Part shown: positions 18,153 to 45,442 of the stretch, piece after piece | Position numbering within the stretch: position 1 is the stretch's first letter | Layout: every line of letters begins with the position of its first letter | Origin: [Phormidium] sp. ETS-05 | Lineage (GTDB): Bacteria; Cyanobacteriota; Cyanobacteriia; Cyanobacteriales; Laspinemataceae | Assembly (NCBI RefSeq): GCF_016446395.1 | Contig: NZ_CP051168.1 | Location: 3,564,787-3,621,578 of the forward strand | Direction of reading: 5' to 3' | DNA: 56,792 nucleotides | The notes under the pieces: generated by a model | Told to the model about the DNA's origin: nothing | The model's input: only the letters and a program-made list of their open reading frames with translations | Database searches by the model: none | Position numbers and translations under genes: made by a program

Positions 18153-18204
<52 letters not shown>

Positions 18205-27450: not shown

Positions 27451-27459
27451 AAACTGCAA

Positions 27460-28332
27460 TTATGGCTGGGTGGTGATGCCGTAAAGCTGGCAGATTTGCA
27501 CTAGCTGCTGTTGGAGCCGATCGCGCAGGTTCTGCGGGGATATTACCAGACATTGCTGGGCTTGGGGCATCACTTCCCGGATAAACCAGTAGGTGTTAGA
27601 GATTTTCTTGACTACTCGCAAGACTTGCCCGGAGTCTGGCAACCATTCGGTGAACTCATCTTCTGATTTTATTCGCGCCGCATAGGCAAAAGCTAGGCGA
27701 TCGAATAAGTGCATTTCCACCCGCAGCGAATCCATATGGGACCGCCAAGGTCGCTGGATGGGGGCGACGCCTGCGGTGACGATGCGATCGAGCCGCAAAC
27801 TCCAGTTATGGATTAATTCGGGCAAATCCAGATTGCCTTCGGTTTCTTCGCACCAACAATCGAGATATTGTCCTCCTTCGTGGAGGTTAATTTGGGCATG
27901 GCGGACCGTGAAGGTCCAGGGGCGACCGGTGGCGTCTTGATAGAAGAGGCGAAACGGCTGCTGGCGGCGGATGTAGCCATCAATTTCCTCCCGCCAGGGG
28001 GGCGGGGGATTTCCCACGAAGCGTTCCATTTCTTGGCGCATGGGCCATGAGGTTTCGTGGCGTTCTAGGAGCAGCTTGGCTACTACCTGGGCCTCGGCGA
28101 GCTTCCCCAGGTCCGTGAGTGCGCGGACACATTGGGCGAGAACGTCGAGGCGACTGGTGGGCCAGTCGTTATTGGGGGCGAGGGATAGCTGCTTCCGGGC
28201 AATGGCTTGCACCAGTTTGGAAATGTTGGGTCGATCGCCCCAAGTCATCCCCAATTCCAGGGCAATCGCTTCTAGCTGCTCCTTGTCTGACTGTGATAGA
28301 GATAGCGTTACTGTCTGACCCTTGCGACTCAT
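27460..28332 (-). CDS. WYL-domain transcriptional regulator, divergent from cas3' (CRISPR-associated regulator)
   Basis: N-terminal DNA-binding-like region. The C-terminus has the WYL-domain signature ...GQYLDCWCEETEGNLDLPELIHNWSLRLDRIV (the RLDRI motif). Its position mirrors WYL regulators found upstream of type I-D operons. Confidence 0.6.
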   Translation of the reverse strand: MSRKGQTVTLSLSQSDKEQLEAIALELGMTWGDRPNISKLVQAIARKQLSLAPNNDWPTSRLDVLAQCVRALTDLGKLAEAQVVAKLLLERHETSWPMRQEMERFVGNPPPPWREEIDGYIRRQQPFRLFYQDATGRPWTFTVRHAQINLHEGGQYLDCWCEETEGNLDLPELIHNWSLRLDRIVTAGVAPIQRPWRSHMDSLRVEMHLFDRLAFAYAARIKSEDEFTEWLPDSGQVLRVVKKISNTYWFIREVMPQAQQCLVISPQNLRDRLQQQLVQICQLYGITTQP

Positions 28333-28454
28333 AATGGCCCCTTAAATTTGTACGGATACTTTTTTTGGCGATAATTAGCGCAAATTCCTTGTATATTTCT
28401 ATATTCCATGCCATAATGGGGTAAATCAAGGTAACACGGACACTACTTGAACTG

Positions 28455-30635
28455 ATGGGAGATTACTACTGCACCCTCAAGCCAGTTTATTCCTGCCCCG
28501 CCACTAAGTTGCCCGCAGGAGTCAAACTGCCTCCTGGCTGGACTTTAGCTTGGCACCAGGCAGCCACCTTAGAGGCAGTGCGCGACCCGAATATCGATGT
28601 AATTATCAATATAGCCCTGACGGGGGATGGTAAAAGTCTATCCGCTTATCTGGACAGTATGCAAGGACACAGCTACGCGCTGGGACTTTATCCCACCAAC
28701 GAGCTGGCGCGGGACCAGGAGGGGCAGGTGAGAAGATATATCGAGGAATTCCAGCCACCTGGAGAACCGCGAGTGTCCCGGTTGAGCGGCCCGGAATTAG
28801 AAATTTATGCGGAAAATGAGGGATTAAGGAAAGCAGCAGCATTGGATTCTAGGTCTTCAAATTCAGAAATTTTATTGACCAATCCCGATATTTTCCACTA
28901 CCTCCATCGTGGGGCTTACTTAACTCTTAATGATACCCCAGATAAGCTGTGGAACCGAATTGATAAGGATTTTAACCTGTTCATTTTTGATGAATTTCAC
29001 ACGGCGAGTGCGCCGCAAATTGCCGGTATAATCAACACCATGCTGCTGATTCGCTGTACTAATCGCCAGAAAAAATTTCTGCTGATGTCAGCGACGCCAA
29101 ATGACCGATTAATCGAGCGATTGCAAGCGGCGGGGTTTCGGTGTCGGATAATTAATCCCCTACAGGAGAGAAAATATCAGTTTCCTGATTCTGCGGGGCG
29201 GGAAAATGAGTTAAAATTGCAGAATTGGCGGCAAGTATCGCGGCAAATTTCTCTCGAGTTTATTTCTTTAGAACCGACGGCAAAGGCTACGGAAACTTGG
29301 GTGAAAGAAAATGGCAATCTGATTTTGCGTCATTTTCAGGAATATCCGGGGAGCAAAGGGGCAATTATCCTTAATTCTATTGCGGCGGTGAAGCGGTTAG
29401 TGCCGAGGTTGCGAGATTTGCTGTCACCCCACGGTTTGGTAGTGGGGGAGAATACGGGTTTATCGGGGAAGGGGGAGAAGGAGCGATCGCTCGCCGCTGA
29501 CCTCGTAATTGGCACCAGCACTATTGACGTGGGGGTAGATTTCAAAATTAATTTTCTCATATTTGAATCCGCCGATGGGGGTAACTTTATTCAGCGGTTG
29601 GGAAGGTTGGGACGACATGACGGCTACGAACGCAATGGGGAGAAAATTGCCTTTACCAATTTCACCGCTTATGCTTTAGTCCCTAATTTTTTATTGGAGC
29701 GGCTGTTTTTGGGGAATCATCCGCCCCTGCAGTCTGGGGGAATGTACGATCGGCCCTACTTCCACCAGCAAATCAGCGACAAATATCGCCAAATCAACGA
29801 CTTTGAGGGATATTACTCCCGCTGGGGGTTGGTGCAATCATGCTTGCTGGATTCCCAGCTCAAGCATATCACAATTAAAAAGGGCTACGCCAGCAGTCGG
29901 GAGGAATTTAGCACTACTTGCCAGCGGGTATTTAAGAAAAGTTTGGGTAAAGCATATGGACAGATAAAACAATGGAATCAGGAGTGGCAAGAGCTATCCG
30001 GTCAAAAAAGCACTTCTCCGATTGTTGAAGATGCTGCCAGTTTCCGGGGAACCAGTCCGCTCCAGTGTGGTTTATACGATTTGACTGAGGCAGCGGCGAC
30101 AGACCGGTTTAAAACCTATGATTTATCGGGAATTTTGAGCAATCTGGAAATTGAACCGATAACTAAAGTGGAGTTTATGCGCCTGCTAGAGGAGACGGAA
30201 AAAACCACGGGACAACCTATTGCTAAAGGTCGATTTAATGGCTGTCTCGCTTTTATGAAATTGCGCGCTTATCGAGAGGAGCGGTTCAACTGGCAATTTA
30301 CTTATGCAGGTGATTTGCGGCCATTAGCTAGTGCTTGGAGGGTGCAAGTGTTGACGGGGATTCAGGTTTGGCAACCGGAGAATTACTGGATTAATGAAAT
30401 TAATCAGCTCTTGAAAAAGCAAGGGTTAGTGAGCTACGTGGTCCGCCATCCGGTGGGGGAGGTACGATCGCGCCTCCGCCTCCCCATGCACTTTCAGATT
30501 TACCCCATGAGCGATCGAGCCAGTTTGCACGACCGCACGGCCCCCTACTCCGTAGCCTTCGGTCAGTCGGCCCTATTACTGGACACCCTGACCCACTGGC
30601 TCAAAAGCATAGGGGGCGATATATGGATTTCCTAG
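28455..30635 (+). CDS. cas3': Cas3' superfamily-2 helicase (type I-D; no HD domain)
   Basis: Walker A ALTGDGKS. DExH box LFIFDEFH. Helicase C-terminal motifs. No HD motif, which sits instead in the downstream large subunit, as expected for type I-D. Confidence 0.75.
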   Translation: MGDYYCTLKPVYSCPATKLPAGVKLPPGWTLAWHQAATLEAVRDPNIDVIINIALTGDGKSLSAYLDSMQGHSYALGLYPTNELARDQEGQVRRYIEEFQPPGEPRVSRLSGPELEIYAENEGLRKAAALDSRSSNSEILLTNPDIFHYLHRGAYLTLNDTPDKLWNRIDKDFNLFIFDEFHTASAPQIAGIINTMLLIRCTNRQKKFLLMSATPNDRLIERLQAAGFRCRIINPLQERKYQFPDSAGRENELKLQNWRQVSRQISLEFISLEPTAKATETWVKENGNLILRHFQEYPGSKGAIILNSIAAVKRLVPRLRDLLSPHGLVVGENTGLSGKGEKERSLAADLVIGTSTIDVGVDFKINFLIFESADGGNFIQRLGRLGRHDGYERNGEKIAFTNFTAYALVPNFLLERLFLGNHPPLQSGGMYDRPYFHQQISDKYRQINDFEGYYSRWGLVQSCLLDSQLKHITIKKGYASSREEFSTTCQRVFKKSLGKAYGQIKQWNQEWQELSGQKSTSPIVEDAASFRGTSPLQCGLYDLTEAAATDRFKTYDLSGILSNLEIEPITKVEFMRLLEETEKTTGQPIAKGRFNGCLAFMKLRAYREERFNWQFTYAGDLRPLASAWRVQVLTGIQVWQPENYWINEINQLLKKQGLVSYVVRHPVGEVRSRLRLPMHFQIYPMSDRASLHDRTAPYSVAFGQSALLLDTLTHWLKSIGGDIWIS

Positions 30636-30637
30636 AA

Positions 30638-30748
30638 AGTCAATCCCTGAAAGGGATTCAACACACTGGTTATCAGTGGGAGGGCATTAGCCCGCAAGAG
30701 CGATGTACGAAATTTCAATCCCTGAAAGGGGTTCGAGTAATTTTTGCC
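30638..30748 (-). repeat. Degenerate two-repeat CRISPR mini-array in antisense orientation inside the cas operon
   Basis: 30712-30747 tttcaatccctgaaaggggttcgagtaatttttg matches the reverse complement of the array repeat at about 30 of 36 positions. 30638-30664 keeps the core caatccctgaaagggattc (19 of 19). The 74-bp spacing equals one repeat-spacer period. Confidence 0.6.
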
Positions 30749-30789
30749 CTCCTCCTCAATCATACAGCAAAAAGTCCCAAAAATTTACT

Positions 30790-30826
30790 TGTCTTCATAC
30801 ATTGTTCTTTAGTGCTGTGTATAATG
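30790..30826 (+). promoter_or_regulatory. Putative extended -10 promoter (TGTGTATAAT) upstream of the small ORF and the toxin-antitoxin pair
   Basis: gtgctgtgtataatgg at 30813-30826. Lies inside the cas operon, downstream of cas3'. Confidence 0.4.
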
Positions 30827-30957
30827 GAGGTGGTGGCGTCAGCCCGCAAGAACAAAGGCCGAAATTCGTTGGAACTGGCTAAGTGCCCTTCTGACGCTTT
30901 CATACCTTACTAAGCCAGGAGCGACCACCATAACCATCCCGGTGGAGGTTCCCATCA

Positions 30958-31146
30958 ATGATTGCATATCAGCAACTAGAACTTTTTGATACTCGCCCTT
31001 ACACATCGGAGCAGCCTATTGCGATCGATAAGGAGGAAGAGCCAGTTACAGTGACTCCCCAAATGGAGCATAAACAGCTAGAACTCAATTTGTTTCCACA
31101 AAAGTCTCATAATACTCCCCTGGAGTGGTTGAGCTTAGCTGCCTAA
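30958..31146 (+). CDS. Small hypothetical protein (62 aa) with a strong SD (GGAGG, 9 nt spacer)
   Basis: MIAYQQLELFDTRPY... No known motif. Well-placed ribosome-binding site. Confidence 0.4.
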   Translation: MIAYQQLELFDTRPYTSEQPIAIDKEEEPVTVTPQMEHKQLELNLFPQKSHNTPLEWLSLAA

Positions 31147-31246
31147 TTTTCCAAGGGGGCTACGACTAAATTAAAATCAAAAGCCCCCTGGCTTCTCAAC
31201 ACTGTATATATGCAGTTTTTCATCTTGGTGAGTTCCAGAGTTTTCC

Positions 31247-31702
31247 ATGAATACAGGCGCAGAAAAATCAACAGATATCACTAATCTTGCCGTCCAACTG
31301 CCAGAAAAATTTCAACACCTAAAAATGCTGGTGCTGTTTGGTTCCAGAGCCAGAGGTGATTTTCGTCCAAACAGTGATTGGGACTTTGCCGCTGTCTATG
31401 ATGAAGCGATTTATCAAAATTTGACAGAAAATCCGTTTGCCGTGTTTGAAATTTCGGGAATTATCAGTAATTTGTTAAATATTCCCGAATCTAAAATAGA
31501 TGTGATAGACTTAGGTAGATGTTCCGCGCTTTTGGCTCACTACGTCGCTCGTGACGGTAAAGTTTTGTATGAACAAGAACCGGGGCAGTTTGAGCAATTC
31601 CGCCGTCAGGCCCTCAAGAGTCACGCTGAAATGAAAGCAACTTACCAAAGCCTGCGCGCCAAACTTGATGAGAGGTTGCAAAATTGGGGTTATGACGATT
31701 GA
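31247..31702 (+). CDS. Nucleotidyltransferase-domain protein (MntA-like antitoxin of a HEPN/MNT pair)
   Basis: LVLFGSRARGDFRPNSDWDFAAVYD is a minimal NTase fold (GS...D.D). The 3' end overlaps the next ORF by 11 nt. Confidence 0.6.
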   Translation: MNTGAEKSTDITNLAVQLPEKFQHLKMLVLFGSRARGDFRPNSDWDFAAVYDEAIYQNLTENPFAVFEISGIISNLLNIPESKIDVIDLGRCSALLAHYVARDGKVLYEQEPGQFEQFRRQALKSHAEMKATYQSLRAKLDERLQNWGYDD

Positions 31703-32132
31703 AAAATATATAGTTATAGCAAAAATAGATTTGATGGGCAAGTATTTGGAACGATTGCAGCGGTTTGAATCTGTGACCTTAGAACAATACCTCAATGATG
31801 GGGATATGCAGTTGGTCGTAGAAAGACTATTACAGCTAATCATTCAAATGGCGATCGACCTGAATCGGTACTTTTTGAAAGAATTAGGGATTGACCAACC
31901 AGAAACCAACGCTGAAGCATTCCACGCCGTCAGCCAATGTGGCATTATTCCCGATAATTTAGCCAAAAACATCGCTGGTTCGGTCAGCTTGCAAAATCGT
32001 TTGGTTCACGGCTATGATACAATCGATAGTGTTATCGTGCATGGTAGCATCAAGAAAGTATTGCAGTATTTTCCCATGTATCAAAAACAAGTCGGCAATT
32101 ATTTGGATTCTTTGGAGGACAAAAATGGCTAG
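31692..32132 (+). CDS. HepT-like HEPN-domain protein (DUF86-type toxin)
   Basis: The C-terminal NRLVHGYD fits the R-x2-H-x-Y part of the HEPN Rx4-6H motif. Size and tight coupling to the upstream NTase are typical of HepT/MntA modules. Confidence 0.5.
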   Translation: MTIEKYIVIAKIDLMGKYLERLQRFESVTLEQYLNDGDMQLVVERLLQLIIQMAIDLNRYFLKELGIDQPETNAEAFHAVSQCGIIPDNLAKNIAGSVSLQNRLVHGYDTIDSVIVHGSIKKVLQYFPMYQKQVGNYLDSLEDKNG

Positions 32133-35100
32133 AAAACGCAAGCAGCAAGATGAAGACAAGGAGCAGCAACTATCTTTATTTGATATTTTGCCCACGGCTC
32201 CCATATCTGAGCCGTCACATGATGATGATTCAGAGTTAGATGATAATGGGGATGATAGTGATTATGATGATGTGGAGCTTAGCTTTGACCCATCAGACCG
32301 AACCATAGAGCCAAAAGCGCCGGAGTTGCTGACGCTGAAACTGCTGCGAAAAGCTATTCTCGCGCAAAATCCCGATGATGCAGTGATGGAAGATTTCGCC
32401 GAATATGTGTTACCAAACCTGCTGCGAGTTGCCATCGCCGTCACCGCCAAAGGGGGTAAGTTTTTTGATAAACTTGATGCCCAGCGGCTGGCTGCAGGAA
32501 AGCCAAAACCTCGGCGTGATAATGCGGCTGACCAGTCGCTAAATAGTCATTTACTCAATGGCATATTTCCGGCGAATTTAATTGAGCAACGCCTGGAAAA
32601 GCTCGATACTACAGTGCGGCGATGCGTCAGGGAGCGGGAGCGCCGGTTACTAATTGCTGGGTTTATTCTCCACGACTTTGAGAAGTTTAATTATGACATA
32701 TTGCCCCAAATGCCCCAGAAATATCGGGACATTAGCAATAGCCAAAATCAGAAGATTCGGGACTTATCTGTGGCGGAACATCGGGAGATTGTGCAGGTCA
32801 TCGCTGATGAATTGCATCTGGGGCAGTTGATAGACCCGGAAAACCCAGAAGCATATCAGGAATATTTGGATGATTTGCTCGTTTTGGCGTATAATGCCCA
32901 GGTGCGGGAGGATACGAATTGGAATTTTTCGGTAGCGCACGGACTGCAGCCGGTATTGGACGATCGCACCCTCCGCTGTCTCGCTGCACTCACTTGCTTG
33001 GCAGATTCCTTTGCCTCAATTATCAAACACCCTCAAGATGCTGAACATAGGCGGTTTCAAGAACTATTACACAGTCTTAGTGATGGCCAACTAAAGCTAA
33101 GCTATCACGGCTTGACCGAAAATCGGGGAGTGTTGACAAACGCCGTGAATAACTCCCTCATCGAGGCTCACACCGCACTCAATACAAAAAACTGCACCTA
33201 CTATGAACCCCTGTTGTATTTGCCAACTGGTGTCATCTACTTGGCGCATAGAAATGCGCCACCAGTGCGGCTGGAAGACTGCCCCGAAAAAGTTGTCAGC
33301 CAGATTAAAAAACTCTGCGCCGGTCAGTTACGCGACAGACAAACCGGTTTTGGCCGCGATGGCAAAGGCATGAAATATGCCGAATATTATAACCTATTTT
33401 TTGACGATGTGGAGTTGATGCAAGTAGCTCTTAATGCCACCATGCGGATTTTGCCTAAAGGCAAATCTTCCGTAGCCCAAGACCGCAGCGACAATCTGAT
33501 AAAATTTCAGAAACAGGGGGTCTTACCCGCCGATTGGGATTTCCAGTTTGCCAACGATATCCGCATCGACCAACTGGCAGAATTTGGCGACCTAGTGAGC
33601 CGGAAAATTTGGGGCGATCGGGTCAGCAAAATTGAAAATTTCCGCAAACAAGACAAAAAAAATAAAAACCTGCCCCCAGTTCCCCCCTTGCAGATTATCG
33701 AAGAAGTTGCTAAACTATGGCAACTGTCGGATTATCTGCCCCAAATTCGGGAAATCCAGCGGCTGAATGAAAGGCTGAAGGAAAATAAGCTCAAAGGTAA
33801 CACTGGCGGCATACCCTACGAATGGTATTATTTAGCTGCCAAGTATCTAGAACGGCACCCAGGAGTTGAGGAGGTGCGGGAGATTTGCCAGCAAGCAATA
33901 GCACATATTGCCCAACTGATTCGACCCATCACCGCTCAGTATCAACTCCCCGATGGTTGGGAAGACTTGTGCCTATGGGTGCAGCGAGTTATCATACTCC
34001 CCAGCCAGCCAGAGTCCAACGCATCATTAGCAGTATTTGCCGATGAATTCCAGCGCTACATGATGGCGAAAAAATCTGGGCGAGGCAGGCAGTTAATCTG
34101 CTCAATTTCTCATTCCGCTTACACGGTGACAGAGCAAATGGAGTCAGCGGTTTTGTTTACCCCCCAGGTTTATACTAACAAACAAATGCTGGGAGGTTCT
34201 AACGCCAAGCGCAATATCTCCAGTATTGCCGGTATCGAGATGATGCTACGGCAAATCTTGATGAACCAAACCCAGGCGGTGGGCAAGAATTTTGAGGATG
34301 GCAAGTATCGTTATCTGTATTTCTATCCTACTTATTACTTCACCCCAGAAACTAACAAGTTTTTGCATCAAGCCTACACCGATATCGCCCAAACTCGTTT
34401 TACGCCTACTCTGCGCAATCACTTTATTAGCTCGGATTTGCAGGCAGATTTTACCAAAACCCGCTACCAAACTGTTGATAGTTTTTTGCTGGATGAAGCT
34501 ATTAAACCAGAAAAAGACCGCACATTTAAACTGTCTTATCCAGAAGACTTGCCCGTAACGTTTTACTTTATGGCACTGCCCACGCCGAAAAAAAGTAAAG
34601 ACCACAAACCCACGGATACGGAATCTTGGATTATGCCAGCTTGGTTGGCGTTTGCTTTCCCCATCATTATCGATGTGAAAACTGCGGTGTCTGAGTCTCC
34701 CATTCCGCCTTTTACTGATGGGGCGGAGTTTGAGGAAAGCGTATTTCTGGACAGTCCACCCCCAGCATTCCGGGTTTTGACCCAGCGCGATCGCTTCCGC
34801 ATTGACTACATCCTAGAAGGTTGGCAAGAAAACGGCAAGGAATATCCCTCACCTTTGAATGTCCTCACCGCCGCTTATGCCATTCATCTCGACGTGAATG
34901 CTCGCCAAGGCAAAAAAGGTTATGATGCCAACTGGGGTAAATTTGCCGAGTTAGCCACGGATTTTGAAACCAGCCCCCTCTCCGTATTTACTTATCTCAG
35001 TAAGTGGGGACGCCGCCAAGAAGCTGAAACCGCCAGCATTAAGAAAATTAAGCTCTATGCTTATCAATTTTACCCCTGTTTTGACCCCTACGTTCAATTT

Positions 35101-35631
35101 AAACCAGAATCGGAGGAATTAATTGTGGACGAAAAATCGCCATTACACCACCCCAAGCGATTGACCGAACTCTATCGCCAATTTTACCGAGCCAACAAGT
35201 TGTATAATCCTAAAGCTAACGCCGTGCTAAAACCCATTGATATTGCTGCCGATGTAATTCTCAAAGTTGACCCCTGTTTTTCGGGCGAAGCTCTCCCCGA
35301 TATGGTCGCTGCGGAAATCTGTAAACTGATGGATCGGGTTCACAGTTCCACCGCCGAAGGGCGTTGGGTATTTAAACGCGATGAACGAGAGCAAGAACGG
35401 GAAAAAATCGCCGAATTCGCTGCCTACTTTGTCCACGAGGTATTTGAGAATTCTTTTGGGGGCGATCGCGCCCGTTTAGCCGGACGACAACTAAACTACC
35501 TCCGCGACACCTGCGAATACCTGTATCGCTTAGAAAACGACAAAGAAATCCGCGCCAAAAAAGAACAATCCCCAGATAATGCGGAGGATAATTTTGACAA
35601 CGAAGAGGAAACAGAAGATGAAACACCATAA
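32125..35631 (+). CDS. cas10d: Cas10d large subunit (type I-D) with an N-terminal HD nuclease motif
   Basis: 1168 aa from the ATG at 32125 (GGAGGA SD), which overlaps the hepT stop. HD motif LIAGFILHDFEKF. Size and its position before csc2/csc1/cas6d are diagnostic of I-D. Confidence 0.7.
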   Translation: MARKRKQQDEDKEQQLSLFDILPTAPISEPSHDDDSELDDNGDDSDYDDVELSFDPSDRTIEPKAPELLTLKLLRKAILAQNPDDAVMEDFAEYVLPNLLRVAIAVTAKGGKFFDKLDAQRLAAGKPKPRRDNAADQSLNSHLLNGIFPANLIEQRLEKLDTTVRRCVRERERRLLIAGFILHDFEKFNYDILPQMPQKYRDISNSQNQKIRDLSVAEHREIVQVIADELHLGQLIDPENPEAYQEYLDDLLVLAYNAQVREDTNWNFSVAHGLQPVLDDRTLRCLAALTCLADSFASIIKHPQDAEHRRFQELLHSLSDGQLKLSYHGLTENRGVLTNAVNNSLIEAHTALNTKNCTYYEPLLYLPTGVIYLAHRNAPPVRLEDCPEKVVSQIKKLCAGQLRDRQTGFGRDGKGMKYAEYYNLFFDDVELMQVALNATMRILPKGKSSVAQDRSDNLIKFQKQGVLPADWDFQFANDIRIDQLAEFGDLVSRKIWGDRVSKIENFRKQDKKNKNLPPVPPLQIIEEVAKLWQLSDYLPQIREIQRLNERLKENKLKGNTGGIPYEWYYLAAKYLERHPGVEEVREICQQAIAHIAQLIRPITAQYQLPDGWEDLCLWVQRVIILPSQPESNASLAVFADEFQRYMMAKKSGRGRQLICSISHSAYTVTEQMESAVLFTPQVYTNKQMLGGSNAKRNISSIAGIEMMLRQILMNQTQAVGKNFEDGKYRYLYFYPTYYFTPETNKFLHQAYTDIAQTRFTPTLRNHFISSDLQADFTKTRYQTVDSFLLDEAIKPEKDRTFKLSYPEDLPVTFYFMALPTPKKSKDHKPTDTESWIMPAWLAFAFPIIIDVKTAVSESPIPPFTDGAEFEESVFLDSPPPAFRVLTQRDRFRIDYILEGWQENGKEYPSPLNVLTAAYAIHLDVNARQGKKGYDANWGKFAELATDFETSPLSVFTYLSKWGRRQEAETASIKKIKLYAYQFYPCFDPYVQFKPESEELIVDEKSPLHHPKRLTELYRQFYRANKLYNPKANAVLKPIDIAADVILKVDPCFSGEALPDMVAAEICKLMDRVHSSTAEGRWVFKRDEREQEREKIAEFAAYFVHEVFENSFGGDRARLAGRQLNYLRDTCEYLYRLENDKEIRAKKEQSPDNAEDNFDNEEETEDETP

Positions 35632-35637
35632 ATTGTA

Positions 35638-35800
35638 GAGATTGTAGGGTGGGCATTGCCCACACCGAGAGTTCAAACATCCTGAATCCAAATTATCTGG
35701 TGGGCAATGCCCACCCTACGATAAACTGCTGGGCAATGCCCACCCTACTTTAAACCAGACACAGACCAATTTGGACAAGGCAATGCCCTGTCCCTACAAA
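35638..35800. repeat. Three to four copies of the palindromic element GTAGGGTGGGCAwTGCCCACCCTAC
   Basis: 35642-35663, 35698-35722, 35730-35750 and a degenerate copy at 35775-35797. The same family occurs at 39117-39146, 55486-55515 and a degenerate copy at 1877-1930. Confidence 0.75.
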
Positions 35801-35818
35801 CCTTAAAGGAGACTAATC

Positions 35819-36832: not shown

Positions 36833-37536
36833 TGGCAATTATTCATCGCTGTATGGTGGAACTACACGACAGTCTGTATTTTGCGACACGGGAAATTGGG
36901 CGGCTCTATGAAACTGAAGCCATCCTGCACAATTATGCTCTCTGTTACGCCCTCGGATTGGTGGATAACGCCGCCTATACTACCCAAGTAGCGGAAGAGG
37001 ATTCCTGCCGGTATTTTTGCGCGGAACAAGTGCCAAAATATGAACAGCATTTAACTGCCTTAAACCAAGCAGGCATTTACATCACGCCGGGACGCCCTGT
37101 CTCCCACGCTACCACCCTCACCACTTGGAAGTATGCCAACAACAACTATCACGTGGAGATGGAAAAAACCCAGAAAAACATTCCCAGTTTTGGCCGCAAC
37201 AAAGAAATAGCCCCAGAAAGCCAGTTTGAATTCTTCGCTATTTCCCCACAGCGGCTCAAATTCCCCCGCTGGATCCGCTTGGGCAAATGGGCGAGCAAAG
37301 CTGAGGTAGCAATTTTGGCCACTGAGGAGGTGAAACCATCGGCCAAAGAACAAGAGTTTACCTTTCCCTATCCCCTGAATCCTCTAGATGTGATGTTTAC
37401 CCATCAAATTTTCAGTTACGATACCATTAATATGCCCCCCGTTAGCCTGATTAGAAATGTAAAAATGCGCGGGCACTGCTATTATTGGGAAGAGCTGAAA
37501 CTGAAAATTCCCGCGATGATGCAATATCGGTTTTGA
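36832..37536 (+). CDS. csc1: Cas5d (Csc1) subunit
   Basis: 234 aa. 1-nt overlap with csc2. Conserved gene order. Confidence 0.6.
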   Translation: MAIIHRCMVELHDSLYFATREIGRLYETEAILHNYALCYALGLVDNAAYTTQVAEEDSCRYFCAEQVPKYEQHLTALNQAGIYITPGRPVSHATTLTTWKYANNNYHVEMEKTQKNIPSFGRNKEIAPESQFEFFAISPQRLKFPRWIRLGKWASKAEVAILATEEVKPSAKEQEFTFPYPLNPLDVMFTHQIFSYDTINMPPVSLIRNVKMRGHCYYWEELKLKIPAMMQYRF

Positions 37537-37614
37537 TATTTAGCATCATTCCAATCGGTAGGGACACAGCAATGGTGTCCCTACATCACCAAAAAAACCA
37601 CTTTTGATATCACC

Positions 37615-38484
37615 ATGCCACACAGTCTCGTCCTCAACATCCTACCCAAATCCCCCATCCCCCCCCAGTTTCTCACTGGGAGGCACTTGCACGCCCTTTT
37701 CCTCACCTTGGTTAGTGCTGTAGATAAAGATTTAAGCGACTACCTCCACAACCAAACTAATGATAAAGCCTTTACCTTGAGTCCTTGGCAAATTGCCGGA
37801 CAAAGGCGGTTTGAACATGGCATTTATTCCCTGGAATGGGAACATCAACAACCTATCCCCGCCGGGACGCAATGCTGGTGGCGCATCTCTCTGCTAGATG
37901 ATAGTTTATTCAGTCAACTGACCAAACTTTGGCTCAATCTTAATCCCCAACATCCTTGGCATTTGGGGCCAGCAGATTTGCTGATTACCAGCATTTTGGG
38001 AACACCGCAACCGGCGCAACCTTGGGCGAGTTTTGCTCCCTACGCTACCTTGTATGAAATGGCTTCGGAAACCGATCGGCAAATTGCTTTTAATTTTACC
38101 ACACCTGCCACTTTTCGGCAAGGGGAAAGTGATATGGCTCTCCCCACCAGGGAAGCAGTGTTTCACAGTCTGATTCACCGGTGGAATAAATACAGCGGCA
38201 TTGAGTTTTCCCATGATTTGAGTGAAAAAATTTTTCCCAGCTTTTTCAATATCCGCACCGCTGTAGTCAGCAACTACAAGAGCAAGTTAATTGGCTGTAT
38301 CGGTCAAATTAGCTACCGAATTTTGGGGGCTGCTGACACTTTGGCGATTAAGCAAATTAATGCTTTAGCTGATTTCGCTCTTTACGCGGGAGTGGGGCGG
38401 AAAACCCCGATGGGGATGGGGATGGTGCGGCGAGTTGATCCGAATCAAAAAACATCTAAACAGTCAGGACAAAATTATGCTTGA
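37615..38484 (+). CDS. cas6: Cas6d repeat-processing endoribonuclease
   Basis: 289 aa. C-terminal glycine-rich loop GVGRKTPMGMGMV is typical of Cas6. Position before cas4-cas1-cas2. Confidence 0.7.
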   Translation: MPHSLVLNILPKSPIPPQFLTGRHLHALFLTLVSAVDKDLSDYLHNQTNDKAFTLSPWQIAGQRRFEHGIYSLEWEHQQPIPAGTQCWWRISLLDDSLFSQLTKLWLNLNPQHPWHLGPADLLITSILGTPQPAQPWASFAPYATLYEMASETDRQIAFNFTTPATFRQGESDMALPTREAVFHSLIHRWNKYSGIEFSHDLSEKIFPSFFNIRTAVVSNYKSKLIGCIGQISYRILGAADTLAIKQINALADFALYAGVGRKTPMGMGMVRRVDPNQKTSKQSGQNYA

Positions 38485-39070
38485 TATTGATTATATTCCC
38501 ATTGCGGCGCTGAATCAATATGCTTACTGCTCTCACCGCTGCTGGCGGATGTTTTGCGCTGGGGAATTTGTGGATAATCATTATACCATTGAAGGCACGA
38601 GTTTGCATAGTCGGGTTCACAGTTTTGGCGAAGGTATCCGGGAAGATGTGGAGCAAATTCGCGCCATTTGGCTGAAGTCGGAGCAGTACAAGTTGATTGG
38701 TAAATCGGATTTGATTGAAACTGTGGATGGGGAGTGGTATCCCGTGGAATATAAACGGGGACGCAAGGGAGAATGGGATAATGATGAGTTGCAGGTAGCA
38801 GCCCAGGCTTTATGTTTGGAAGAAATGACGGGTAAAACCATTACTGGCGGCTATATTTATTATGCCAGTTCTTACCAGCGGCAGTTGGTGGAAATTTCCC
38901 CAGAATTGCGGGGGCAGACTCTGGCAACTATTGCGGAAGTTGCCAAGTTATTCGCGACGGGGGCAATGCCGAAACCTACTTATAATCCCCGTTGTCGTGG
39001 GTGCAGTTTGTCTGCTGCTTGTTTGCCCCAAGCTGCCGCGAAAATTGGTCGTTATCAAGAATTGAATTAG
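38477..39070 (+). CDS. cas4: Cas4 (RecB-like nuclease with a four-Cys cluster)
   Basis: Start at the ATG at 38477, overlapping the cas6 end. N-terminal Cys (YAYCSHRCW) and C-terminal CRGCSLSAAC form the Fe-S cluster ligands. Confidence 0.8.
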   Translation: MLDIDYIPIAALNQYAYCSHRCWRMFCAGEFVDNHYTIEGTSLHSRVHSFGEGIREDVEQIRAIWLKSEQYKLIGKSDLIETVDGEWYPVEYKRGRKGEWDNDELQVAAQALCLEEMTGKTITGGYIYYASSYQRQLVEISPELRGQTLATIAEVAKLFATGAMPKPTYNPRCRGCSLSAACLPQAAAKIGRYQELN

Positions 39071-39146
39071 TCATTGGTCATTGGTCATTAGTCCTTTGTC
39101 TTTTGTCTGATAAAAGTAGTAGGTGGGCATTGCCCACCCGACAAAA
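39061..39146. repeat. TTGGTCA/TTTGTCT heptamer tract plus a copy of the GTAGGTGGGCATTGCCCACCC palindrome
   Basis: tcattggtcattggtcattagtcctttgtcttttgtc ... agtaggtgggcattgcccacccgac. Confidence 0.8.
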
Positions 39147-39174
39147 ATTCAGAAGTAGCCTTTAGGAGGTAATC

Positions 39175-40179
39175 ATGGGAACTGTTTATGTGGTGCAAGA
39201 TGATGCTTTTGTGGGAAAAACTGATGAACGGTTGACGGTAAAAGTCGGGAAAGATAAGCCCCTAGAGGTGCCTTTACTGATGATAGATGGGCTGGTTGTG
39301 TTGGGACGAGCGACGATTTCTCCCGCAGCTATTCTGGAGTTACTAGAGCGGCATATTCCGGTATCTTTTCTCAGTCAGAATGGGCGTTATTTGGGAACGC
39401 TAGAACCAGAGTTGAGTAAAAATATTTTTGTGAGAGCTGCTCAGTGGCAAGCTGCGGGTCATTCTGAACTGGCGGTGGGGGCTGTGCGGGGTTTTGTGCG
39501 GGGTAAGTTGAAGAATTACCGCCATATTTTGCAGCGGCGAGAGCGGGAAAATGCAGACCTGAATTTAGCTGATGGGATTGCTAAGTTAGAATCGGCGATA
39601 TCGCCGATTAATGCTACTGATAATATTGACAGTCTCCGGGGATTAGAGGGTGCTGGTAGCGCGGCTTATTTTGGCTGTTTTAATCAGCTAATTCGGGGGG
39701 ATGGGTTTGAATTTACTGCAAGGCGGCGGCGTCCTCCTACTGACCCAGTAAATGCGCTGTTGAGTTTTGGTTATGCTTTGCTGCGCCATGATGTGCAAGG
39801 GGCGGTAAATACGGTGGGTTTTGACCCCTATTTGGGCTATCTCCATTACCAGCGTTATGGTCGCCCTTCTTTGGCGCTGGATTTAATGGAGGAGTTTCGG
39901 CCTTTGGTGGTAGATACAATTGTTTTAGCTGCGATTAATAAGCGGACTCTGACCGTGAATGATTTCGTTACCGAGCCTTTGAGCGGTGCGGTTTCTTTGA
40001 CTCAAGAAGGATTGCGCACTTTTCTGCGGCTTTATCAGGAGAAAAAGCAGTCTAAGTTTAAGCATCCGGTGATGGGGCGGCAATGTACTTATCAAGAAGC
40101 CTTTGAGATTCAAGGGCGCTTGTTGGCGAAGTATTTGATGGGGGAAACTGACCAATATCCGCCCCTGGTTTTGAAATAA
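39175..40179 (+). CDS. cas1: Cas1 integrase
   Basis: 334 aa. N-terminal beta-sandwich MGTVYVVQDDAFVGKTDERL. Conserved catalytic-region residues (E...H...E pattern). Sits immediately upstream of cas2. Confidence 0.88.
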   Translation: MGTVYVVQDDAFVGKTDERLTVKVGKDKPLEVPLLMIDGLVVLGRATISPAAILELLERHIPVSFLSQNGRYLGTLEPELSKNIFVRAAQWQAAGHSELAVGAVRGFVRGKLKNYRHILQRRERENADLNLADGIAKLESAISPINATDNIDSLRGLEGAGSAAYFGCFNQLIRGDGFEFTARRRRPPTDPVNALLSFGYALLRHDVQGAVNTVGFDPYLGYLHYQRYGRPSLALDLMEEFRPLVVDTIVLAAINKRTLTVNDFVTEPLSGAVSLTQEGLRTFLRLYQEKKQSKFKHPVMGRQCTYQEAFEIQGRLLAKYLMGETDQYPPLVLK

Positions 40180-40185
40180 GGGTTG

Positions 40186-40265
40186 GTCATTGGTCATTGG
40201 TCATTGGTCATTTGTCCTTTGTTTGGATAGAACAAGGGACAAATGACAAGGGACAAAGGACAAAG
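40186..40265. repeat. Dyad-symmetric heptamer repeat block
   Basis: ttggtcattggtcattggtcattggtcatttgtcctttgtttggatagaacaagggacaaatgacaagggacaaaggacaaagg. Confidence 0.85.
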
Positions 40266-40286
40266 GAAATCAGTTTAGGAGTGGTT

Positions 40287-40559
40287 ATGAATGTTGTGAT
40301 TTCTTATGATGTTTCTGAAGATAAGCGCCGCAATAAAATCCATAAAGTGTTAAAATCTTATGGTCAGCGGGTGCAGTATAGTGTGTTTGAGTGTGAGCTT
40401 ACGGATACTCAATATGCGAAACTCAGGTCCCGCTTGAGTAAGTTGATTAAGCCGGAGGAGGACAATATCCGTTTTTACTCCCTCTGCGCTTGTTGCTTTG
40501 GTAAGGTCGATCGGATTGGCGGACCGTCGCCGGTGGATAGGACCATCTTCTTCGCTTAA
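40287..40559 (+). CDS. cas2: Cas2
   Basis: 90 aa, MNVVISYDVSEDKRRNKIHKVLKSYGQRVQYSVFEC... with the conserved N-terminal Asp. The track's upstream extension lies in the repeat block. Confidence 0.88.
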   Translation: MNVVISYDVSEDKRRNKIHKVLKSYGQRVQYSVFECELTDTQYAKLRSRLSKLIKPEEDNIRFYSLCACCFGKVDRIGGPSPVDRTIFFA

Positions 40560-40816
40560 CCCGATTTTGCGCGGAGGGGTAGGTGTTGGGAGAGGGCAAT
40601 CAAAATTTTCGCCTGGAACCGTTGACGGGCAAGGTTTTGAGCCCTATTAGAGAAAAAATCGAGCCGCGCAAATCCTGAAACCCTTATGGCACAAGCATTA
40701 GAGCGAAATTTTTTTTCAACCCCCTTGACAGCCCAGGAGCTGAAATGGTATTTTTAGATCGATTCGCGCAAATGCACCTTGAAAACTGCATATTCCAAGG
40801 GTTCCAGGAGCCCGCT
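40560..40816 (+). promoter_or_regulatory. CRISPR leader with a putative promoter (-35 TTGACA at 40725-40730)
   Basis: AT-rich. Ends at the first repeat. A duplicate of this leader precedes array 1. Confidence 0.7.
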
Positions 40817-43800
40817 CCCGAAATTTACCCGAATCCCTTTCAGGGATTGAAACCTCCGCAAATACAATTACTCATCCCCTGCTCGCTGTACCCGAAATTT
40901 ACCCGAATCCCTTTCAGGGATTGAAACTGGAGGAGGCATACCTCTGGTAATTTCGATCACCCTCCCGAAATTTACCCGAATCCCTTTCAGGGATTGAAAC
41001 CTGGATATCCAGGGATTGGGCGGGGATGAAAACCGTCCCGAAATTTACCCGAATCCCTTTCAGGGATTGAAACCCCCCCGTGCTAATTAGTCTCCGGTGG
41101 TGTAGCTCCCGAAATTTACCCGAATCCCTTTCAGGGATTGAAACCTCAGAGATGAGGAGGAAAAGGCCCAGAAGTTGGGCAAACCCGAAATTTACCCGAA
41201 TCCCTTTCAGGGATTGAAACTCTGAATACCAGACAGTCACATGCTGATATCCCTTGGACCCCGAAATTTACCCGAATCCCTTTCAGGGATTGAAACCAAG
41301 CTCACATCAAGAAACTGGCTTTCGATTATGACCCGAAATTTACCCGAATCCCTTTCAGGGATTGAAACGACTAGCAGGCAAAGCCTTAATCCCATTGCCT
41401 TTGGACCCGAAATTTACCCGAATCCCTTTCAGGGATTGAAACCATTCCCACCACTGAAGTACCTCCCAGTCGGGGAAACCCGAAATTTACCCGAATCCCT
41501 TTCAGGGATTGAAACTCATCCCAGGATTCTTTTGGTGGTTCCATTCCATACCCGAAATTTACCCGAATCCCTTTCAGGGATTGAAACTAAGAAACAACGT
41601 GCCGGGGAGAGGGGAGCGATCGCCCCGAAATTTACCCGAATCCCTTTCAGGGATTGAAACAAAAAATGTCCCCACGGCGTCGGGGGAGGCAAAGGGGCCC
41701 GAAATTTACCCGAATCCCTTTCAGGGATTGAAACTTTGAGGCTGTCGAGCCTCAACACCACCGCCGTATCCCCGAAATTTACCCGAATCCCTTTCAGGGA
41801 TTGAAACCTTTGGGGGCTTCTCTTTCTCCTAGGACTGCGCCGTGCCCGAAATTTACCCGAATCCCTTTCAGGGATTGAAACATTGTTGGCCCACTCCCCC
41901 CACTCAAACTGTAGTCGGCCCGAAATTTACCCGAATCCCTTTCAGGGATTGAAACAAGGCTGGCGTGACGGCTAAATTTGGCGGTTTCCGCCACCCGAAA
42001 TTTACCCGAATCCCTTTCAGGGATTGAAACGCGTCCCCGATGCCGGCCCCCATCACGGGCCCCTATTTCCCGAAATTTACCCGAATCCCTTTCAGGGATT
42101 GAAACTTGAGAAGTATCTGATAAATCGCTAAATAATGCGACCCCCGAAATTTACCCGAATCCCTTTCAGGGATTGAAACACACGGTTTTTGGTGGTGTCA
42201 CATAGGGACTACATACCCCGAAATTTACCCGAATCCCTTTCAGGGATTGAAACATGGTATAATCCCGTTAGCAGATAGACTAAAAAGCGGCCCGAAATTT
42301 ACCCGAATCCCTTTCAGGGATTGAAACGGGGGGACTTTGTTTTTTGTTACGGGAATCAAACATCCCGAAATTTACCCGAATCCCTTTCAGGGATTGAAAC
42401 TTAAAGACGGTGAGGAATTTTTCATCCGAGCATCAAACCCGAAATTTACCCGAATCCCTTTCAGGGATTGAAACGAGCAACAACCCAATCAACCAGATTC
42501 GCCATACTTTCCCGAAATTTACCCGAATCCCTTTCAGGGATTGAAACCTCACTTTGCCCCATCTGCAGCTGGCGACGAGCCGCACCCCCCGAAATTTACC
42601 CGAATCCCTTTCAGGGATTGAAACGCGCTTCATTTCTAGTTCGCGCTTTACCCAATACCACAGCCCGAAATTTACCCGAATCCCTTTCAGGGATTGAAAC
42701 TAAATTCCCACGGTGTTTCACCTACAGGCGATCGCCCGCCCGAAATTTACCCGAATCCCTTTCAGGGATTGAAACATCACCTTGGGTAGCGATGACCTGC
42801 CCCCGCAAAAAGAAGCCCGAAATTTACCCGAATCCCTTTCAGGGATTGAAACCATTAATTTCGGCGTCGAAATTCCCACGGTGGTTCCCGAAATTTACCC
42901 GAATCCCTTTCAGGGATTGAAACCAGTCAATTGAACTAGCTTTAACAACAGGCGACAACATCCCGAAATTTACCCGAATCCCTTTCAGGGATTGAAACAG
43001 GATGACGGTGTTGGGGGGGACCCCCTCAGGTATGGGTCCCGAAATTTACCCGAATCCCTTTCAGGGATTGAAACAAATTTCCCGTCGTGGCCGCGCTTCA
43101 TTTCTAGTTCGCCCCGAAATTTACCCGAATCCCTTTCAGGGATTGAAACACATCATCTAACTTGTTTGAGGGGGAGACAGCAACAAAGCCCGAAATTTAC
43201 CCGAATCCCTTTCAGGGATTGAAACTAATAGATAGTGCGGACATATCCGCATATACCCTTCCCCGAAATTTACCCGAATCCCTTTCAGGGATTGAAACTC
43301 GGAAAAAGTCCGAGCCACAGTGCCGGTCGCGGTAGCGCCCGAAATTTACCCGAATCCCTTTCAGGGATTGAAACTAGTCGTACTGATTGATAGTCCCCAC
43401 AATTGATGGTGTCCCGAAATTTACCCGAATCCCTTTCAGGGATTGAAACAGCAGTAAGGGCAGACTTGATGGCCTCAGCCTTGGTGCCCCGAAATTTACC
43501 CGAATCCCTTTCAGGGATTGAAACTGGTTTCCCTTCGTGAGGCGATCGCGCAGATACCGGATCCCGAAATTTACCCGAATCCCTTTCAGGGATTGAAACC
43601 CAACCTAGAACAAGTTTCAGTAACTCCATCAACCGACCCGAAATTTACCCGAATCCCTTTCAGGGATTGAAACCCTTTACGTTTATCCCTGCCAAGATTG
43701 CGGATAACCAAGCCCGAAATTTACCCGAATCCCTTTCAGGGATTGAAACTCTCCAGTCTGGCATCCCGCCAAGACCACACCCACCCGAAATTTACCCGAA

Positions 43801-45442
43801 TCCCTTTCAGGGATTGAAACCAGTTATCGGGCCGGCCTTCAACCATTCCTAGAGGCCTCGAAATTTACCCGAATCCCTTTCAGGGATTGAAACCTCAGCT
43901 CCGTCTAATTTGTACCACAAATCAAACACCCGAAATTTACCCGAATCCCTTTCAGGGATTGAAACTATTTGCCCTGACTCATAAGCCACAATGCCATCAG
44001 ATCCCGAAATTTACCCGAATCCCTTTCAGGGATTGAAACAGTCTCTGTGGCTCCAGCGCAGCCACTGCCACGACTCCCGAAATTTACCCGAATCCCTTTC
44101 AGGGATTGAAACCTTATGGGATAGTGTGTACGCCATAAGAAATAGTGTACCCGAAATTTACCCGAATCCCTTTCAGGGATTGAAACTGCATCCGAGTAGT
44201 GACTGCTTGGTATTGTCCCACCACCCGAAATTTACCCGAATCCCTTTCAGGGATTGAAACATCGGCGAAACAACTCTGTGGCAGCTTTGCCTGTACCCCG
44301 AAATTTACCCGAATCCCTTTCAGGGATTGAAACGGCCATTCTTTATCGTCTGGCGCTTTACGAAGGTTGGCCCCGAAATTTACCCGAATCCCTTTCAGGG
44401 ATTGAAACGTACACCTGATTCTTGGCACGCCGAAATCGGCGAGCCCGAAATTTACCCGAATCCCTTTCAGGGATTGAAACAAGTTTTTTCTTTGGGTTTG
44501 TTTTTCTCCTTATTTGCCCCCGAAATTTACCCGAATCCCTTTCAGGGATTGAAACCGCGTAGCTTCTCACCCACGATTTGAAGTGTGAGCGATCCCCGAA
44601 ATTTACCCGAATCCCTTTCAGGGATTGAAACTCATTAAAAGCGACTGCATTTATCTGGGCTGCTCTGTACCCGAAATTTACCCGAATCCCTTTCAGGGAT
44701 TGAAACTAATTTTCGGTGTAATTATCCTCCTATTTGTAAGCCCGAAATTTACCCGAATCCCTTTCAGGGATTGAAACAAATGTACTCATGTTTTTCCTCT
44801 CCTATTTTTAGCCCGAAATTTACCCGAATCCCTTTCAGGGATTGAAACTTGCAGTTCGCCAAACAGGCCATTCGCTGTCCCCTCCACCCCGAAATTTACC
44901 CGAATCCCTTTCAGGGATTGAAACAAACCAGTCTATATTTGTGCCTTGCACCTGCTGGATAAGTCCCCGAAATTTACCCGAATCCCTTTCAGGGATTGAA
45001 ACCTTACTCTGATTGTTGGTATTAAGCTGATTAAGACCCGAAATTTACCCGAATCCCTTTCAGGGATTGAAACTGCAAATATTGAGGCTTCATCTAGCAG
45101 ATAAATCACCCGAAATTTACCCGAATCCCTTTCAGGGATTGAAACATATTCAGGAAAGCGGTAGGCGCGCAAACGCCTGCCGACCCGAAATTTACCCGAA
45201 TCCCTTTCAGGGATTGAAACATATTCAGGAAAGCGGTAGGCGCGCAAACGCCTGCCGACCCGAAATTTACCCGAATCCCTTTCAGGGATTGAAACCAAGG
45301 TAAACACAGATGTATCGTTATTTCACCGCATGCACCCGAAATTTACCCGAATCCCTTTCAGGGATTGAAACACATACCCCACAAATATGCGGTTCATTCA
45401 GCCGTCCCGAAATTTACCCGAATCCCTTTCAGGGATTGAAAA
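40817..45442 (+). CRISPR. CRISPR array 2: about 63 repeats of the same 37-bp repeat, about 62 spacers of 34-40 bp
   Basis: Regular period of about 74 bp from 40817. Terminal repeat (45406-45442) ends ...GATTGAAAA. One internal variant repeat (about 43857, cTcgaaattt). One duplicated repeat-spacer unit (45146-45258). Confidence 0.95.

Follow-up and report, generated by a model that had tools for sequence, protein, structure and literature searches.

A complete type I-D CRISPR-Cas locus on the chromosome of [Phormidium] sp. ETS-05, with predicted layers of self-regulation

A 56,792-nucleotide stretch of DNA from the cyanobacterium [Phormidium] sp. ETS-05 (hereafter, the window) contains, at positions 27460-45442, what is, with roughly 90% probability, a complete chromosomal type I-D CRISPR-Cas system, built like CRISPR1 of Synechocystis sp. 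PCC 6803 and overlaid with inferred layers of self-regulation. All ten of its genes are intact, and the locus as a whole appears to be so. It is of an ordinary, well-populated cyanobacterial kind, with a subtype, a gene order, a WYL regulator, and a layout of a mini-array followed by cargo genes that have all been described previously. As a complete and tidy example from a strain that can be cultivated, the locus lends itself to study of the self-regulation circuit predicted for type I-D systems.

The regulator, Cas10d, Cas3', Csc2, HepT, MntA, and the product of a small open reading frame (ORF) are identical to RefSeq proteins of [Phormidium] sp. ETS-05, encoded on a 6.29-Mb contig, and the RefSeq entries for these proteins already bear type I-D names. 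That the locus is chromosomal follows from the dnaN (249-1397), cysS, and tRNA genes elsewhere in the window. At gathering thresholds, Rfam matched two tRNAs in the window and nothing else, and a literature search on strain ETS-05 found no mention of CRISPR. Related loci were collected by scanning one genome per species. This yielded 80 loci, with Cas10d 62-72% identical; record titles assign 79 of them to cyanobacteria, the exception (L054) being a metagenome-assembled genome labelled Acetobacteraceae. Subsets of these were used for particular counts: 77 gaps between cas3' and cas10d; 61 loci for seed matching; 55 loci for motifs between the regulator and cas3'; and 18 orthologues of the regulator. 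In about 74 of the 80, loci of filamentous cyanobacteria, the order from the divergent regulator to cas2 is kept.

The cas genes were identified as follows.

28455-30635, plus strand: cas3', 726 amino acids (WP_199245407.1); TIGR03158 cas3_cyano, 372 bits against a cut-off of 69; PADLOC Cas3d, 6e-183 over the full length.
32125-35631, plus strand: cas10d (csc3), 1168 amino acids (WP_199245411.1); TIGR03174 Csc3, 976 bits against a cut-off of 60; PADLOC Cas10_Id, 1462 bits.
35112-35631, plus strand: candidate internal cas11d; Shine-Dalgarno sequence GGAGGA at 35112-35117, 7 nt, then a GTG start at 35125 (Val1001); 168 amino acids in the cas10d frame.
35819-36832, plus strand: csc2 (cas7d), 337 amino acids (WP_199245412.1); TIGR03157, 357 bits; Pfam Csc2, 397 bits; PADLOC Cas7d, 1.7e-127.
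36832-37536, plus strand: csc1 (cas5d), 234 amino acids; TIGR03159, 209 bits; PADLOC Cas5d, 2.8e-98.
37615-38484, plus strand: cas6d, 289 amino acids; PADLOC Cas6d, 2.8e-140; Pfam CRISPR_Cas6_N (247 bits) and CRISPR_Cas6; TIGR01877, 75.6 bits.
38477-39070, plus strand: cas4, 197 amino acids from the ATG (the mechanical ORF begins at TTG 38435); TIGR00372, 161 bits; Pfam Cas_Cas4.
39175-40179, plus strand: cas1d, 334 amino acids; TIGR04093 cas1_CYANO, 425 bits against a cut-off of 385.
40287-40559, plus strand: cas2, 90 amino acids from ATG 40287, which is preceded by AGGAG; PADLOC Cas2d, 6.1e-39; Pfam CRISPR_Cas2, 102 bits.

A preliminary description of this DNA had proposed the same gene order and the type I-D subtype, and profile searches indeed placed a type I-D family on each ORF that it listed. 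For Cas3', Cas1d, and the profiles it had singled out (Csc2, Csc1, and Cas10d), scores exceeded the subtype-specific curated cut-offs; Cas6d, Cas4, and Cas2 were also matched, and the PADLOC type I-D models agreed. For cas2, the PADLOC and Pfam matches both begin at residue 31 of the mechanical ORF. Cas3' contains the Pfam domains DEAD, ResIII, and Cas3-like_C_2, along with helicase motifs GDGKS (residue 57) and DEFH (residue 179), but neither a Pfam HD domain nor, within the first 200 residues, an HD dipeptide was found in it. The HD motif is present only in Cas10d, as LHDFEK (residues 182-187; 32668-32685), aligned with LHDYDK of the Synechocystis protein; the earlier placement of HD on the large subunit rather than on the 726-residue helicase thus survives a direct check. 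Cas10d matches chain 7sba_I of the PDB (1.5e-57) with the HD region aligned, and the Cas11d chain 7sba_J aligns to Cas10d residues 1008-1136, its Met1 falling on Val1001. The GTG at 35125 is a credible start for Cas11d, whose internal translation we infer by analogy with the family (PMC10212523).

A different subtype, or a type I/III hybrid distinct from type I-D, has a practically negligible chance of being correct. Cas1 also scores well with the I-C and I-G Cas1 models, and Cas4 with a Cas4g/Cas1g model, but these alternatives remain below their own cut-offs whereas the I-D models exceed theirs. Csc1, Csc2, and Csc3 are exclusive signatures of type I-D, and the position of the HD motif fits. 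Both an HD domain in the helicase and a Cas8 in place of Cas10d were looked for, and neither was found.

Members of the family suggest how the type I-D machinery would work: Cas10d, Cas11d, Csc2, Csc1, and Cas6d would assemble on CRISPR RNA (crRNA) and locate a GTN protospacer-adjacent motif (PAM); Cas3' would be recruited next; and the Cas10d HD domain would degrade the DNA. (Sll7009, Cas11d, and the GTN PAM are covered in the type I-D review PMC10212523.) Synechocystis CRISPR1 (regulator sll7009; slr7010, cas3', through ssr7017, cas2; structure 7SBA) shares with the ETS-05 locus the gene order, the HD-bearing cas10d, the leader, and the array, and has an internal cas11d where ETS-05 has a candidate one; its repeat likewise is about 37 nt with a GAAAC end, and Cas10d and Cas11d are recognizably homologous (family facts from PMC10212523). 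Nevertheless, the resemblance of Cas10d to 7SBA is modest (198 bits), and the ETS-05 protein, at 1168 residues, has an N-terminal acidic extension carrying the sequence QQLSLFD, whereas the 7SBA chain has 975 residues. The ETS-05 locus differs further in having a mini-array, the small ORF, and MntA/HepT between cas3' and cas10d. Finally, it is chromosomal, whereas Synechocystis CRISPR1 is on the plasmid pSYSA.

Among the cas genes lie other repeated sequences. A 29-nt tandem repeat (two copies, 35697-35755) separates cas10d from csc2, and runs of heptamers (TTGGTCA, GACAAAG, and others) occupy many intergenic regions, including those between cas genes (for example, 40183-40267, 39066-39107, and 27367-27453).

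Downstream of cas2 are the leader and the main array, and a second array unit lies elsewhere in the window.

40560-40816, plus strand: leader, 257 nt, with promoter-like TTGACA-18 nt-TATTTT at 40725-40754 (one site against 0.2 expected).
40817-45442, plus strand: main array, 63 repeats of 37 nt and 62 spacers of 34-41 nt, with a degenerate terminal repeat.
16455-17905, plus strand: second array unit, comprising a cas2 3' fragment (16455-16643), a leader copy (16644-16900), and an array (16901-17905).

On the plus strand of the window, 76 copies of the 37-nt repeat, CCCGAAATTTACCCGAATCCCTTTCAGGGATTGAAAC, are present at no more than one mismatch (none expected). In the main array the repeat ends in ATTGAAAC, and 60 of the 63 copies are identical; it folds into a 7-bp hairpin followed by GAAAC, and its core, ATCCCTnnnAGGGATTGAAAC, is common to 60 related arrays. 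Thus, the earlier count of 63 repeats in an array following cas2 and a leader was borne out, together with the handle-type repeat end. The last repeat ends in GAAAA, and this degeneracy fits a leader on the cas2 side. As in the family, the leader promoter would drive the crRNA precursor, which Cas6d would cut at the repeat hairpin to leave the 8-nt handle AUUGAAAC.

The second array had been placed 23 kb away, and the measured distance is 22.9 kb upstream. It has 13 repeats (16901-17835) plus a fourteenth, degenerate copy (17869-17905). The preceding cas2 fragment consists of the last two thirds of the gene, 5'-truncated and frameshifted; the leader here and the main one are 94% identical. By its sequence, the unit arose through segmental duplication of the 3' end of cas2 together with leader and array, and is neither an independent nor an orphan array. 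The two arrays have no spacer in common despite their common leader, which indicates that spacers were gained after the duplication. Cas1, Cas2, and Cas4 would insert new spacers beside the leader, probably at both arrays, because the second retains a leader 94% identical to the first.

Spacers in both arrays (62 and 13) are 33-45 nt long, with a median of 37. The whole main array had no match in a phage collection, searched in both near and distant modes, or among plasmids, searched in near mode; two spacer cores likewise had no match in IMG/VR. A GTN PAM is favored indirectly, by the flanks of the predicted mini-array target described below (GTC in the window, GT in 47 of 61 relatives). Within the window, the spacers match nothing outside the arrays beyond chance 11-17-mers, and so self-targeting was not seen there. 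Some spacers are related to one another. B59 (45146-45183) and B60 (45221-45258) are identical, marking a duplicated unit near the trailer end; B25 (42625-42663) and B31 (43075-43112) share a 20-nt overlap and together cover a single target of 57 nt; and B26 (42701-42738) and B28 (42853-42886) have 14 nt in common, apparently from related but different targets.

The array borders also carry recognizable sequences. Two tRNA-Phe(GAA) genes, at 17981-18053 and at 18125-18204 (minus strand), adjoin the trailer end of the second array; the one at 18125-18204 is 80 nt long with a weak Rfam score (35.9 bits) and may be degenerate. Just upstream of the cas2 fragment, a sequence of about 30 nt, GGGGCACGGCA..ATTAATATCTCG, occurs twice (16318-16345 and 16412-16440), and may mark a boundary of the duplicated stretch or belong to a small mobile element. 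On the far side of the main array, a UvrD/PcrA-type helicase is split among three minus-strand ORFs (45444-47850): the N-terminal domain (46513-47850); a 101-residue piece (46259-46564); and the UvrD_C part (45444-46250), which stops a single nucleotide from the last repeat. The helicase gene is probably a pseudogene.

One predicted layer of self-regulation lies in the interval between cas3' and cas10d (30636-32124), where three elements stand close together.

30637-30748, minus strand: mini-array, consisting of PsiR1 (30748 to 30712), a 38-nt pseudo-spacer (30711 to 30674), and PsiR2 (30673 to 30637).
30791-30831, plus strand: predicted mini-array target, with PAM GTC at 30791-30793; the site spans a perfect -10 element, TATAAT, at 30820-30825.
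30826-30863, minus strand: second copy of the pseudo-spacer, with AAT in the place of the PAM; 24 of 36 compared positions are identical.

The mini-array directly follows the cas3' stop codon. PsiR1 has mismatches to the repeat at 7 of 37 positions and ends in ATTGAAAT, whereas PsiR2 retains the 20-nt hairpin core exactly but not the handle. Of 77 related loci, 73 have two minus-oriented repeat cores at this position, and the pseudo-spacers, unlike true spacers, group into a small number of families that persist from genus to genus. Type I-D mini-arrays that follow cas3 in the opposite orientation were described by Shmakov et al. 2023 (bioRxiv 10.1101/2023.03.03.530964, Figs 4 and 6A), who also report toxin-antitoxin and regulator genes as "cargo" upstream of cas10d and place targets in the promoter of that cargo, the type I-D case by prediction. 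The preliminary description was therefore correct that there is an insertion between cas3' and cas10d but not that it is unusual, given the 73 of 77 relatives and the published account. Sequence comparison makes the insertion part of that published, widely conserved module for presumed self-regulation.

What would the mini-array recognize? The first 16 nt of the pseudo-spacer, TTCATACATTGTTCTT, match positions 30794-30809 at 13 of 16 residues, 46 nt from the mini-array itself. Among all GTN-flanked sites in the 13.5 kb from 27300 to 40820 it ranks first, at a level that no shuffle attained. Of the 61 related loci, 52 have a significant seed match, and when no PAM was imposed, the best 12-nt seed match was flanked by GT in 47 of 61, against a chance expectation of 1/16. 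Mismatches in relatives concentrate at position 6 (30/47), at position 12 (29/47), and then from position 16 onward. Such pairing, limited to the PAM-proximal region, suggests that Cascade binds without cleavage.

These features provide a model for control of the operon. The minus-strand mini-array probably yields a crRNA-like RNA, whose first 16 nt would pair partially (13/16) with the GTC-flanked site lying over the promoter of orf62-mntA-hepT-cas10d...cas2. Cascade would bind this promoter without cutting it, and thereby repress both its own operon and the cargo. The survey of relatives sharpens the self-regulation prediction for the clade as a whole through four features: the GT flank (47/61); the mismatches at 6 and 12; the end of pairing near nt 16; and a candidate operator, ACGGAYAC, discussed below.

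Immediately after the TATAAT comes the second pseudo-spacer copy. It is where the presumed plus-strand transcript would begin, and the 5' untranslated region (5' UTR) of that transcript would be complementary there to the mini-array RNA. In 41 of 61 loci, a same-strand copy of this sort reaches significance. Two further candidates in this interval were set aside. A structured 5' UTR RNA before the small ORF has a consensus fold too weak to claim (-9.3 kcal/mol, covariation term 0.7, and four pairs with compensatory changes); and orf96 (96 amino acids, 30623-30913) has no family match and merely overlies the mini-array.

The arrangement closely follows the type I-D loci that Shmakov et al. describe: a mini-array straight after cas3 on the opposite strand; toxin-antitoxin cargo before cas10d; and a seed-type, PAM-adjacent match in the cargo promoter. 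As far as the available parts of that text go, the small ORF, the PAM-less second copy of the pseudo-spacer, and the 6/12 mismatch pattern were not found mentioned. CreTA, a CRISPR-regulated toxin-antitoxin, and CreR, a Cas-regulating RNA, of type I-B systems in haloarchaea (and of other types), as cited by Shmakov et al., follow the same logic: a degenerate repeat-spacer-repeat RNA carried in Cascade, a partial PAM-adjacent promoter match, and repression without cleavage. CreT, however, is a small RNA toxin, whereas the presumed cargo here is protein-coding (the small ORF and MntA/HepT) and runs into the Cascade genes.

Alternatively, the mini-array might be the decayed, functionless end of a former inverted array, with the partial match at the target site a remnant of duplication. 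PsiR2 in the window does resemble the terminal repeat and flank of the main array; the pseudo-spacer has a same-strand duplicate that lacks a PAM; and the seed mismatches in the window are not at positions 6 and 12. Decay would not readily account, however, for a position and orientation kept in 73 of 77 loci from many genera, for pseudo-spacers conserved in families as real spacers are not, or for a best seed match that has a GT flank in 47 of 61 loci. The mismatches at 6 and 12, and the end to pairing near nt 16, fit Cascade geometry. A functional reading of such mini-arrays, moreover, is already in print (Shmakov et al.). Simple decay is thus improbable, and a Cascade-guided repressor is the preferred interpretation.

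The presumed cargo begins with the first gene after the targeted promoter.

30958-31146, plus strand: small ORF, 62 amino acids, with motifs QLELFD and QLELNLF and a C-terminal LAA; hypothetical protein in the NCBI annotation.
31247-31702, plus strand: mntA, 151 amino acids (WP_199245409.1), type VII antitoxin nucleotidyltransferase; NF047752, 86.5 bits against a cut-off of 60.
31692-32132, plus strand: hepT, 146 amino acids, HEPN toxin; NF047751, 104 bits against a cut-off of 60.

MntA matches Pfam Polbeta and NTP_transf_2 and contains the GSRARG and DWD motifs. The hepT gene overlaps mntA by 11 nt and the start of cas10d by 8 nt, and MntA/HepT directly precede cas10d in about 30 of the 80 related loci. 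The ETS-05 HepT reads SLQNRLVH, so that Gln (Q101) replaces the catalytic Arg of the HEPN Rx4-6H motif, and the family's catalytic motif is lacking here. By contrast, 25 of 25 intact HepT relatives have RNxxxH, and SLRNRLVH is the sequence in two relatives that are at least 90% identical; among the relatives compared, loss of the Arg is limited to ETS-05. With this residue lost, HepT in ETS-05 is probably inactive, unless the substitution reflects a sequencing error. A naturally inactivated toxin should ease genetic manipulation of the locus.

Loss of the HepT catalytic Arg also bears on whether the entire locus is a genomic fossil, namely a type I-D system that is well preserved yet inactive, with arrays that have ceased to support acquisition or interference. 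The cas2 pseudogene beside the second array, the split helicase gene just downstream of the main array, and spacers with no match in the phage, plasmid, and tested IMG/VR sequences would fit that view. Yet none of the ten cas ORFs is shortened relative to its profile, 60 of the 63 repeats have one and the same sequence, and arrays that share a leader but no spacer imply acquisition after the duplication; for cyanophages, which are poorly sampled, missing protospacer matches are the rule. A fossil is therefore very improbable, and a complete system remains much the better description.

A second layer of control presumably acts upstream of cas3', where a divergently transcribed regulator faces its candidate operator.

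27460-28332, minus strand: WYL-WCX regulator, 290 amino acids; ribbon-helix-helix (RHH)-like N-terminus, WYL domain, and C-terminal WCX domain.
28352-28443, plus strand: divergent promoter region; promoter-like TTGTAT-17 nt-CATAAT at 28389-28417, upstream of cas3'.
28352-28359 and 28436-28443, plus strand: ACGGAYAC motifs, ACGGATAC (28352) and ACGGACAC (28436), flanking the cas3' promoter.

The 290-residue protein is best described, with the help of its structural model, as a diverged WYL-WCX regulator, and by sequence it is the weakest call of the locus. It matches the PADLOC model for CRISPR-associated WYL proteins (3.8e-12), but Pfam found no WYL match in it and scored WCX at 23.7 bits against a cut-off of 23.9. 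Its orthologues are clearer: all 18 match WCX (best 2.4e-10), and 11 of 18 weakly match WYL. Searched against the PDB, the single sequence returned only noise, whereas a profile built from the orthologues weakly matches PafC (PDB 7p5x), with the WCX region aligned to the PafC C-terminus. The AlphaFold (AF2) model of the regulator has a predicted local distance difference test score (pLDDT) of 77.7, and a fold search of the PDB gave WYL regulators as each of its top 32 matches: PafBC, DriD, BrxR, CapW, and WYL1. Of the 80 related loci, 74 have a homologue transcribed divergently from cas3'. The divergent WYL regulator of the preliminary description is accordingly upheld by PADLOC, by the orthologues, and by the fold search, with weak sequence profiles.

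At the N-terminus, where a winged helix-turn-helix was sought, no helix-turn-helix profile matched. The model there has a short strand-helix-helix, and RHH_1 weakly matches 1 of the 18 relatives; together these suggest a ribbon-helix-helix rather than the winged helix typical of the family. BrxR, CapW, PafBC, DriD, and WYL1 (type VI-D) have WYL and WCX folds in common with the ETS-05 protein, and defence WYL regulators likewise are encoded divergently beside the presumed target defence operon. Unlike them, this protein has no winged-helix domain, and its similarity to Pfam WYL falls below threshold. WYL1 (PDB 6OAW, fold matches 22 and 26), however, has an RHH-plus-WYL layout like the one suggested here.

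The intergenic region between the regulator and cas3' spans 122 bp. At least two copies of ACGGACA occur in this region in 51 of 55 related loci, at a density 177-fold that in the rest of those loci; the window contains seven copies against 1.5 expected. ACGGAYAC is likely the operator of the WYL regulator. A palindrome in the same region, TTGGCGATAATTAGCGCAAA (28365-28384), was also considered as operator, but is present in only 2 of 55 loci and was dropped in favor of ACGGAYAC because it is not conserved. The RHH-WYL-WCX protein probably binds both ACGGAYAC motifs around the cas3' promoter, and would repress by analogy with its Synechocystis counterpart Sll7009, which is a negative regulator and the only tested type I-D case (PMC10212523).

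The direction of control could nonetheless be the reverse. It is possible, if unlikely, that the WYL-WCX protein acts as an activator or as a sensor of nucleic-acid ligands (in the manner of DriD, PafBC, or CapW on induction), switching the system on. The best fold matches, PafBC and DriD, are activators, and the WYL domains of those proteins bind single-stranded DNA or other ligands. On the other hand, the operator-like motifs stand on either side of the -35 and -10 elements, one of them within the 5' UTR, a layout more typical of repression, and Sll7009, the sole tested type I-D case, regulates negatively (PMC10212523). Repression by the WYL-WCX protein therefore remains the favored reading.

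Several observations tell against the interpretation of this locus as a complete, self-regulated type I-D system. The regulator is not matched by the Pfam WYL model, and its WCX score is 0.2 bits too low. Its RHH-like N-terminus stands against the winged helix reported for Sll7009, which bears both on orthology and on the direction of regulation. The protospacer searches (phage, plasmid, and IMG/VR) gave no real target. At the predicted mini-array target, mismatches in the window fall at positions 4, 10, and 12, unlike the 6/12 pattern of most relatives; the promoter there has a weak -35 element; and the PAM-less second copy of the pseudo-spacer is left unexplained by the repression model.

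The small ORF offers a lead of a different sort. It is present in 15 of the 77 gaps, and the alignment indicates conservation at the protein level. Its family comprises 55 cluster representatives, nearly all of 58-69 amino acids, with invariant Q6, L9, Y15, L45, A61, and A62; the C-terminal AA usually is LAA, and the motifs QLxLFD and QLELxLF recur. A Pfam search of the 62-residue protein gave no match. Bacterial proteins that bind the beta sliding clamp carry the consensus QL[SD]LF or QLxLxL, and a C-terminal LAA resembles the ssrA degron; in the 62-residue protein, both QLELF and QLELNL (within QLELNLF) fit that consensus. Cas10d has a comparable sequence, QQLSLFD, at residues 14-20 (32164-32184); in 47 of 80 loci its N-terminus has a basic stretch followed by QQLSL[FL][DE], with QLSL[FL] at residues 12-17. 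A literature search for a link between Cas10d and the sliding clamp found nothing.

The clamp-motif resemblance of the 62-residue protein and of the Cas10d N-terminus is thus a lead, not a finding. Followed to its end, it would have type I-D Cascade of filamentous cyanobacteria tethered to the replisome clamp, and a small, unstable protein, kept under Cascade control by the crRNA-like RNA, acting as a competitor or as a clamp-poisoning toxin, a doubtful proposal at present. Were it true, a toxin would be released when Cascade fails, as in CreTA, and further control, at the RNA level, could come from the second pseudo-spacer copy in the 5' UTR, which lacks a PAM; type I-D Cascade binds single-stranded RNA in vitro.

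Two minor observations concern sequences outside the locus. A 30-nt repeat is present in 4.5 copies at 25937-26070, upstream of the CRISPR-Cas genes. Two adjacent minus-strand ORFs at 5527-7595 (445 and 244 amino acids) match different halves of the FAD-dependent oxidoreductase family PF12831, which suggests a split or frameshifted gene.

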